From the IMG/VR virus record IMGVR_UViG_3300001865_000265: a stretch of DNA of 37,270 nucleotides; one strand, given 5' to 3'. Below, in pieces: positions 2,628 to 3,183 of this stretch. Positions within the stretch are counted from its first letter, which is position 1, and every line of letters starts with the position of its first letter. The position numbers were made by a program, and so were the translations under genes. This stretch comes from a virus. The notes under the pieces are model-generated. The model was not told where the DNA came from and searched no databases. It saw only the letters and a program-made list of their open reading frames with translations.

Positions 2628-2702
2628 GGACATCCGGAAAAGAGGCACAGCAAAGTATATTATTAATTAAACTTTGGTCGGGTTCGAGTCCCGAGTTGTC
2701 CA
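2628..2702 (+). ncRNA. tRNA-like element 1 (75 nt, no D-stem or canonical anticodon loop)
   Basis: Acceptor GGACATC/GTTGTCC (one U-U mismatch); T-arm TCGGG-TTCGAGT-CCCGA; CAAAGT/ACTTTG stem with a 14-nt A/T-only loop; TTATAAAT box at 2588-2595. Confidence 0.65.
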
Positions 2703-2897
2703 TTGGGAGTAATCCCATTAAAAACAGAGGCTGTGGATCTTTGCTGCCCGAAAGCTAAAGCTGTAAAATGTTTCCTCTGTGGTTAGTAGAGTCTAAGTTC
2801 CTGATTGCAGACTCTTATTCAAAACTCAATATTTCAGGACAATGGCTTATCAGAACCTTACTGATATTCGGGACACTGGTAAGCCGACCCCCCTTAA

Positions 2898-2964
2898 TGG
2901 AGAGTGGCCAACTGGGAAGGCAAGTACTCGAGTCGTAATGTGGGTTCAAATCCCGCCACTCCAA
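2898..2964 (+). ncRNA. tRNA-like element 2 (67 nt, no variable loop, non-canonical anticodon loop)
   Basis: Acceptor TGGAGAG/CACTCCA (one mismatch); D-arm GCC-AACTGGGAA-GGC; weak arm AGTAC-TCGAGTC-GTAAT; T-arm GTGGG-TTCAAAT-CCCGC. Confidence 0.65.
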
Positions 2965-3072
2965 TTTGGAACCTGTCAAAAATAGTCATTTTGAACAACC
3001 ATGATTCAACTATTCCTCAGCCAATGGAAATGGATCACCTAAAATGACAGGTTCCACTACATATTTTTTTTA

Positions 3073-3183
3073 TGGACGGCACAGGGACTAAATAAATAGA
3101 TAATTGCAGCCAATCAAGTTATTTGAAAATTTAAATTTATAAAACAAGTTTTTCTATCAGGGGTTCAATTCCCCACCGTCCAA
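3073..3183 (+). ncRNA. tRNA-like element 3 (about 110 nt, extended AU-rich arm)
   Basis: Perfect acceptor TGGACGG/CCGTCCA; T-arm GGGG-TTCAATT-CCCC; ATAGA 3096-3100 / TCTAT 3153-3157 closes a 52-nt AU-rich insert; no D-stem. Confidence 0.6.

Follow-up and report, generated by a model that had tools for sequence, protein, structure and literature searches.

Non-decoding tRNA-like elements and two covarying RNA structures at the head of the early genes of a Methanobacterium provirus

The locus and its genomic setting

The window, that is the whole stretch of 37,270 nucleotides analysed here (IMG/VR record IMGVR_UViG_3300001865_000265), is an integrated tailed virus (provirus) of a Methanobacterium. 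Its first gene encodes a tyrosine integrase (Pfam PF00589); an identical integrase protein occurs on a 535-kb metagenome contig, where it adjoins host ABC-transporter genes, and one of 67% identity is encoded by Methanobacterium sp. ERen5, whose genome is complete (L007). Farther downstream follow an ERF recombinase gene, a DUF5906 primase-helicase-like gene and the structural genes, each of them on the + strand. Between the small integrase-proximal genes and the early operon there is a 750-nt gap without genes (2486–3235) that holds the array described below (Table 1), and this locus forms the non-coding start of the provirus's rightward early genes. The tRNA mimics had been placed, in a preliminary description of this DNA, within a non-coding array that includes structured RNA, and both the gene-free gap and the hairpin RNA named H agree with this.

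Table 1. Features of the array and of the adjoining early genes, with positions in the window
Feature	Position	Strand	Characteristics
P1, promoter-like block	2543–2602	+	Inverted repeat CTAAGAG/CTCTTAG; TATA-like TTATAAATTTATTAG ~30 nt 5′ of E1
Leader palindrome	2603–2627	+	CAGATGGATCC-TTG-GGATCCATTTG, from repeat search; between P1 and E1
E1, tRNA-like, 75 nt	2628–2702	+	Acceptor and T-arm, no D-stem; cannot decode
Small hairpin	2704–2717	+	TGGGA-GTAA-TCCCA, directly 3′ of E1
Spacer	2718–2897	+	No ORF homology, no Rfam match, no conservation found
E2, degenerate tRNA, 67 nt	2898–2964	+	Acceptor, D-arm and T-arm kept; anticodon arm cut to 13 nt
H, structured RNA	2967–3056	+	12-bp closing stem, ~66-nt loop with inner hairpin and motifs TTTTGAAC and TCAGCCAA
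T8 run	3063–3070	+	Between H and E3
E3, tRNA top-half mimic, 111 nt	3073–3183	+	7-bp acceptor, inner hairpin, T-arm, discriminator A
First early ORF	3245–3448	+	Ribosome-binding site GAGGTGAT, probable TTG start
E4, minimal acceptor plus T-arm, 45 nt	4395–4440	+	Gap between two early genes

At the left junction (L001:9517–10000), the host gene beside the integrase encodes only 110–116 aa with a weak NMT1_2 match, and a 300-aa NMT1 binding protein is encoded nearby in the ERen5 genome; the provirus may have truncated or displaced the gene of the window's host. No attachment-site repeat was found from the left junction to the right end of the window, and E3 was ruled out as an attachment site because it lies inside the provirus.

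Related viruses

Six related viruses were found and are called here ERen5, G075, L064, L065, L066 and X5. ERen5 is the provirus in the Methanobacterium sp. ERen5 genome (L007), and the G075 relative is a second provirus (L048) with a 35%-identical integrase. L064, L065 and L066 are metagenome contigs reached via homologues of the ORF at 3585–3923, while X5, which is ~95% identical to the window, is known from short DNA contigs of run X5 alone. Among the more distant relatives, DNA similarity is confined to a few islands, E3 among them. Another island kept among distant relatives lies just 3′ of the integrase stop (1126–1271; 89% identity between G075 and ERen5, 75% to the window), and it may correspond to the small ORF 1191–1379 or else serve in regulation or recombination.

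Wider searches were negative within their scope. Neither a blastn search of 2480–3240 against the phage GenBank collection nor searches of IMG/VR with the integrase, a 23-mer of E1 and a 20-mer of H gave a match, and in metagenome and genome contigs the H 20-mer was truly present only in ERen5, the remaining hits being chance matches of 20–27 nt. BLAST of 2600–3240 against 314 Methanobacteriaceae genomes returned, beyond ERen5 and G075, only short A/T-rich matches, many of them in coding regions. As for E3 itself, no further members were detected with the ERen5 copy among 328 genomes of the order, or with the covariance model R1 among 32 genomes of the genus; the pattern AAGTTTTTCTA..GNGGTT gave four new matches, all in coding regions and no commoner than for the reversed control, and the contigs carrying more distant integrase homologues (L055–L060) are other elements in which E3 is absent.

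Four tRNA-like elements without a decoding domain

Each of the elements E1–E4 combines a 7-bp acceptor helix with a G/C-rich T-arm and a TTCRANN loop. A strict scan, in which candidates had to show this loop on a G/C-rich T-stem containing the pair G53:C61 and no more than one unpaired position in a 7-nt acceptor, returned exactly these four, all on the + strand and within 1.8 kb, against a chance expectation from Markov shuffles of 0.037 elements on average and one at most (n = 300). In all four, the 7-bp acceptor is set on a 5-bp T-stem, with a single acceptor mismatch at pair 6:67 in E1 and in E2 and, in E3, a mismatch at the outer T-stem pair. The place of the anticodon arm is taken by a 13-nt loop in E1, by 13 nt instead of 17 in E2, by a 79-nt insert in E3 and by a 14-nt linker in E4. 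The candidacy of a canonical tRNA was rejected, as no element has a 5-bp anticodon stem with a 7-nt loop (U33, purine 37) and a variable loop, and none of the four can decode. The modules originally reported at E1, E2 and E3 have the sequence attributed to them, and the central proposal that they are non-decoding mimics keeping the half of tRNA recognized by RNase P, tRNase Z and the CCA enzyme holds for the acceptor and T-arm of all. They are, however, not three modules of one kind, as had been supposed, since E1 and E2 occupy tRNA slots and E3 is a conserved element (see below).

Dedicated tools behaved as had been anticipated for pseudo-tRNAs. ARAGORN called neither tRNA nor tmRNA, and the Rfam tRNA model RF00005, applied to 2300–3500, did not match E1 or E3 even at E ≤ 10, nor E4, and scored only E2, weakly (33.5 bits for a gathering score of 29). 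An intron-containing archaeal tRNA (bulge-helix-bulge), which would have spoken against mimics, was likewise rejected: with introns allowed ARAGORN made no call at default thresholds, and lowered thresholds merely joined unrelated halves, such as the 5′ part of E2 with the 3′ part of E3. A tmRNA was discarded too, the Rfam match being just 15 nt of T-arm at 11 bits; archaea are not known to have a tmRNA. The tRNA-like fold is the minimum-free-energy fold for E3, whereas for E1, E2 and E4 it lies 3.5–5 kcal/mol higher. In structure the elements agree with those known as t-elements, which likewise join the T-arm motif to an acceptor helix in a tRNA-like but non-canonical fold; for E3, covariation adds to this agreement.

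The E1 and E2 slots and the question of decay

P1 is called promoter-like for its archaeal TATA likeness only. It is 80% identical to its ERen5 counterpart and 85% to that of L064, it is present in X5, and in G075 and L065 it precedes a tRNA-Trp. The leader palindrome could be an operator or a leader hairpin; G075, L065 and L066 also have palindromes at the leader position, with sequences different from that of the window.

E1 combines an acceptor with one U.U mismatch (GGACAUC/GUUGUCC) and a perfect T-arm (UCGGG-UUCGAGU-CCCGA), and its 13-nt A/U loop closes on a 6-bp stem where the anticodon arm belongs. Relatives of E1 were not found, and it has no similarity to the small ORFs of the related viruses. 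Its slot, by contrast with its sequence, is shared: behind the promoter-like block and leader palindrome, G075 and L065 carry a tRNA-Trp(CCA), and in X5 exactly 2628–2699 is exchanged for 125 nt with a tRNA-Trp-like beginning, both flanks matching the window. Although these flanks are ~95% identical, E1 shares no sequence with the X5 tRNA-Trp and is therefore a swapped cassette rather than a copy decayed in place. As a side observation, TATA-like A/T-rich stretches occur in both E1 (2657–2672) and E3 (3126–3144), about 20–30 nt before the T-arm or the 3′ end; they could be due to chance in a genome of 68% A+T or could be internal start signals for the following RNA.

The spacers between the elements were previously read as hairpin RNAs, and this reading survives in part. 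The 12-bp hairpin at 2967–3056 is well founded (fold z-score −3.3, covarying stem), but most of 2704–2886 folds as its shuffles do: the complementary words listed there are present, yet folding is no better than that of shuffled sequence (z −1.8 and −0.9), and only the small hairpin at 2704–2717 is seen again in a relative, X5, where 2700–2721 is identical while the contig diverges on either side. The spacer has no similarity to small ORFs of the relatives. It ends in a C6 run, which has counterparts in L066 and X5 ahead of their tRNA-like genes. Runs of C5–C7 in fact recur, before E2 (2889–2894), before the L066 tRNA-like gene (L066:263–269) and, in G075 (L048), after the hairpin and just before the T8 run.

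E2 has an acceptor with one A.A mismatch, a 3-bp D-arm and a T-arm GUGGG-UUCAAAU-CCCGC. The absence of a variable loop follows from the Rfam alignment, which provides 13 nt where an anticodon arm needs 17. X5 keeps E2 with five differences; the two that were mapped both fall in the remnant of the anticodon arm. In ERen5, the slot directly before the long hairpin holds a good tRNA-Thr(UGU) (59.7 bits). In L066 the E2 slot holds a 108-nt anticodon-less tRNA-like gene (45.6 bits) with perfect acceptor, D-arm and T-arm, in which a 45-nt insert of two hairpins replaces the anticodon arm. In L064 the slot before H is empty of any tRNA-like element. Overall, the E1 and E2 slots hold in relatives a tRNA-Trp, a tRNA-Thr, another anticodon-less tRNA-like gene or nothing, and the part that persists across these contents is the top half. 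The exchange of mimics and real tRNAs in the same slots is here indicated directly by the sequences compared.

Because E1 and E2 stand where relatives have true tRNA-Trp and tRNA-Thr genes, they may be degenerate tRNA genes rather than purpose-built mimics. It may further be argued that E1, E2 and E4 derive from viral tRNA genes by decay or rearrangement and have no function of their own, the slot being one where tRNA genes are gained, lost and degraded especially often, and that only H and E3 are functional, for unrelated reasons. Phage genomes commonly hold tRNA pseudogenes, true tRNAs occupy the same slots in relatives with none in L064, the L065 tRNA-Trp is itself degenerate, and E1 and E4 lack relatives while E1 and E2 have one acceptor mismatch each. 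Against decay, the damage in E1, E2 and the L066 element is limited to the anticodon domain, with perfect T-arms and nearly perfect acceptors; E1 did not arise by decay, in place, of the tRNA-Trp that the close relative X5 carries; E2 also survives in X5, a lineage with diverged flanks; and four elements on one strand are far above chance. Decay without function is, on this balance, somewhat unlikely.

The hairpin RNA H and the T-run

H folds better than any of 200 shuffled versions (0/200) and is ~92% identical to its ERen5 homologue. H and E3 are found in five of the six relatives; the hairpin of G075 is a different one, and E3 was not seen in X5. The sequence of the closing stem varies (TGGAACCTGTCA/TGACAGGTTCCA in the window, GGAACCTACCA/TGGTAGGTTCC in L064, GAGAGTAGGA/TCCTACTCTC in L065), while both loop motifs given in Table 1 are unchanged. 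Across five relatives, 8 of the 12 stem pairs show compensatory changes, in a plain MAFFT alignment not fitted to structure, and 95% of the stem cells are paired, compared with 77% in shuffles and 25–45% when the strands are slid. This covariation indicates that H is under selection for base pairing.

A T7–T8 run lies between the hairpin and E3 in all six E3 carriers. Since oligo-T tracts terminate archaeal RNA polymerase, the T8 run of the window is probably a transcription terminator or attenuator.

E3, a conserved top-half mimic, and the early genes

The E3 family has six members of 97–113 nt, which score 79–119 bits with the covariance model R1. In the window, E3 has a perfect acceptor (UGGACGG/CCGUCCA), a T-arm GGGG-UUCAAUU-CCCC and an A/T-rich insert; it has no D-stem, and the A/U-rich block AAACAAGUUUUUCUA before the T-arm is conserved. 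Conserved as well is an ACAGG that immediately follows the 5′ strand and may imitate the GG with which the D-loop builds the elbow of a tRNA. T6–7 runs follow E3 on its 3′ side in three of the six members.

The acceptor helix exists in four distinct and fully complementary versions (UGGACGG/CCGUCCA, UGCAGGU/GCCUGCA, UGGUGGA/UCCACCA and UGGAGCG/CGCUCCA), and in a fifth with one bulge. Matched strands form 7 of 7 pairs versus an average of 4.3 for mismatched strands, and full helices result from the true strand pairing only (1 of 24 permutations). Compensatory changes affect 9 of 12 pairs, and the covariation score of 0.58, against 0.20, is reached by none of 500 shuffles; these values come from a model-fitted alignment that leans towards the structure, though slide controls still drop to 0.04–0.14. 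E3, too, is under selection for base pairing. Given the many compensatory changes in their helices, H and E3 are selected RNA structures, while E1 and E2 are positional replacements of real tRNAs. Conservation of the acceptor and T-arm pairing in relatives, which the preliminary description had made a touchstone, is found for E3. E3 and the H hairpin are the only features with comparative evidence of selection, and E1 and E4 have no relatives.

Could E3 act mainly at the DNA level, as promoter of the early operon through a TATA-like box in the insert and as operator through the T-arm palindrome, a repressor site at the expected start, its tRNA likeness being a relic? A TATA-like TTTATAAA is found at 3136–3143, ~25 nt before the T-loop, and the P1 palindrome is similarly spaced from its own TATA; the T8 terminator lies just upstream, and in G075 a fresh promoter block follows another T8; and the block AAACAAGTTTTTCTA is nearly invariant, as expected of a protein-binding site. 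A promoter does not explain, however, why acceptor strands 100 nt apart covary in four versions; the inserts of L064 and L066 have no TATAAAA box, the T-loop retains the tRNA consensus, and the block's many short matches in host genomes lie in coding sequence or are due to chance in A/T-rich DNA. One of them, in G042, is a host intergenic TATA region without a T-arm and lends no support to a promoter. An action of E3 mainly as DNA is improbable.

The first ORF after E3 differs among relatives that share the cassette order, which makes E3 a portable upstream module. The first early ORF of the window contains a G10 run (3366–3375) that is the same in all near-identical contigs and is a possible slippage or phase-variation site. 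E4 was looked for in ERen5, G075 and L064 and was not found there.

Order of the array and comparison with known systems

The order putative promoter, tRNA or mimic, hairpin RNA, T7–8 run, E3 and early genes is conserved. The part from tRNA or mimic to the ORF is arranged in this way in the window, ERen5, L065 and L066; in G075 the hairpin is another one, and in L064 the tRNA is missing.

The closest parallels are the t-elements. In plant mitochondria, these direct RNase Z and RNase P cleavage at mRNA ends (Forner et al. 2007, PMC1920247), and in Haloferax volcanii RNase P and tRNase Z set free, in vivo, an RNA that has a t-element on either side (PMC4946936). Like the elements of the window, t-elements depart from the standard cloverleaf while conserving a T-arm (GGTTCRANYCC-type motif) and an acceptor helix, and they do not decode; they adjoin the ends of mRNAs or small RNAs and are cut by RNase P and RNase Z, and for the window elements a like position and cleavage are proposed. 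The latter differ in belonging to an archaeal provirus and being known here from DNA sequence alone, in the much larger size of E3 (97–113 nt) with its conserved A/U-rich insert and its own flanking T-runs, and in the true tRNA-gene slots occupied by E1 and E2.

The TMERs of murine gammaherpesvirus 68 are non-aminoacylated tRNA-like sequences followed by a stem-loop RNA and an oligo-T terminator; they have RNA polymerase III internal promoters, and a tRNase Z cut after the tRNA-like part frees hairpins that yield microRNA products. The resemblance to TMERs suggested at the outset is confirmed at the level of order, since tRNA-like part, hairpin and T-run follow each other as E2, H and T8 in the window, and likewise in ERen5, L065, L066 and, except that the hairpin is not the same, G075. 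It does not extend to a polymerase III internal promoter or to microRNAs, and an upstream TATA-like block is found instead; archaea have a single RNA polymerase and are not known to have a microRNA pathway. Also unlike in TMERs, a second tRNA mimic (E3) comes after the T-run and leads into protein-coding genes.

In mascRNA/MEN-beta (Rfam RF01684), a tRNA-like fold without a working anticodon serves as an RNase P/RNase Z mark in a longer transcript, as is proposed here, but there is no Rfam match in the present case, the domain of life is another one and there is no triple-helix partner. Phage tRNA clusters (e.g. with the species 1 and 2 RNAs of T4) consist of tRNAs and small RNAs that are co-transcribed behind an early promoter and cut by tRNA-processing enzymes. 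They have in common with the group studied here the frequent gain, loss and decay of tRNA genes; the window virus, however, has no functional tRNA, and what is conserved in it is H and E3, neither of them a tRNA. Literature searches turned up no account of tRNA-like processing elements from phages or archaeal viruses.

A proposed role in RNA processing

E1, E2, E4 and the L066 element have all kept the top half while decoding was lost, so that the simplest function common to them would be recognition by RNase P and tRNase Z. Together with the t-element precedents and the TMER-like succession E2-H-T8, this favours the reading that the elements are t-element-like cis-acting processing signals, arranged much like TMERs, that would free H and set the 5′ end of the early mRNA; we give it a probability of roughly 0.45. 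All four elements retain the acceptor/T-arm stack, which is the part read by both enzymes, and a GG that might form the elbow. A tRNase Z cut 3′ of E2 would generate the 5′ end of H, and either the U-run or an RNase P cut at E3 its 3′ end. A tRNase Z cut 3′ of E3 (and of E4) would then provide a defined 5′ end for the downstream early mRNAs and, by the same event, part them from the non-coding portion. We infer the single read-through transcript, its enzymatic cutting and the role of H from the layout of the locus.

Several points weigh against processing. Transcription into a full E3 should to a large part stop at the T7–8 run that separates it from H, and a TATA-like box ~25 nt before the T-arm in four of the six E3 inserts means that the early mRNA may have its start within E3. 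In L064, H and E3 are present although no tRNA-like element lies upstream, so H is not strictly dependent on one. Moreover, E1 and E4 have no relatives, E1 and E2 carry an acceptor mismatch, and the tRNA-like folds of E1, E2 and E4 are not those of minimum energy. Most of the tRNA-like elements found computationally in Haloferax reportedly remained uncleaved in vitro in the work of Holzle et al. 2012.

Once excised, the mimics might rather serve as decoys or sponges for nucleases of host defence systems that target tRNA, for tRNA-modifying enzymes or for the CCA-adding enzyme. Many tRNA-binding enzymes in general read the top half and elbow, and one locus would make several mimics. Yet the anticodon loop that anticodon nucleases need is missing, no partner gene was found adjoining the array, and E3 and E4, lying in cis immediately upstream of ORFs, are better accounted for by processing, which leaves a decoy function highly improbable. 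A search of the window for sequences to which H, the spacer or the inserts of E1 (its loop) and E3 could pair as antisense RNAs gave nothing above chance.

A more ambitious form of the processing reading is that the conserved cassette is a viral RNA-processing and regulatory module hijacking archaeal RNase P and tRNase Z, which would produce a ~100-nt small RNA (H) and gate the early genes; this is rather unlikely. E3 would in this case be both a cleavage mark in the shape of a tRNA and a signal at which the downstream mRNA starts, and the module would be the archaeal counterpart of both herpesvirus TMERs and mitochondrial tRNA punctuation.

Very little is known about how transcription and RNA processing are organized in methanogen viruses. 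If the elements are indeed processing signals, tailed archaeal viruses have host tRNA enzymes cut their transcripts at tRNA-shaped marks, a principle so far documented in organelles, in a herpesvirus and for some long non-coding RNAs, and the persistence of virus tRNA genes without an anticodon would be explained. H and E3 are two structured RNA families new here, each supported by covariation, and could become portable processing tags in methanogen genetics, as t-elements are in Haloferax.

Variation at the elbow in L065

The tRNA-Trp of L065 (L065:670–743) is degenerate, with two acceptor mismatches and an odd T-loop. This T-loop and that of the L065 E3 (L065:840–936) both read TGCAA, not TTCAA, which places a G at tRNA position 55, and the D-loop of the tRNA-Trp has AG in place of the usual GG. 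These T-loop and D-loop changes could represent a correlated change of the elbow contact, or a shared adaptation to, or escape from, an enzyme that reads the T-loop.
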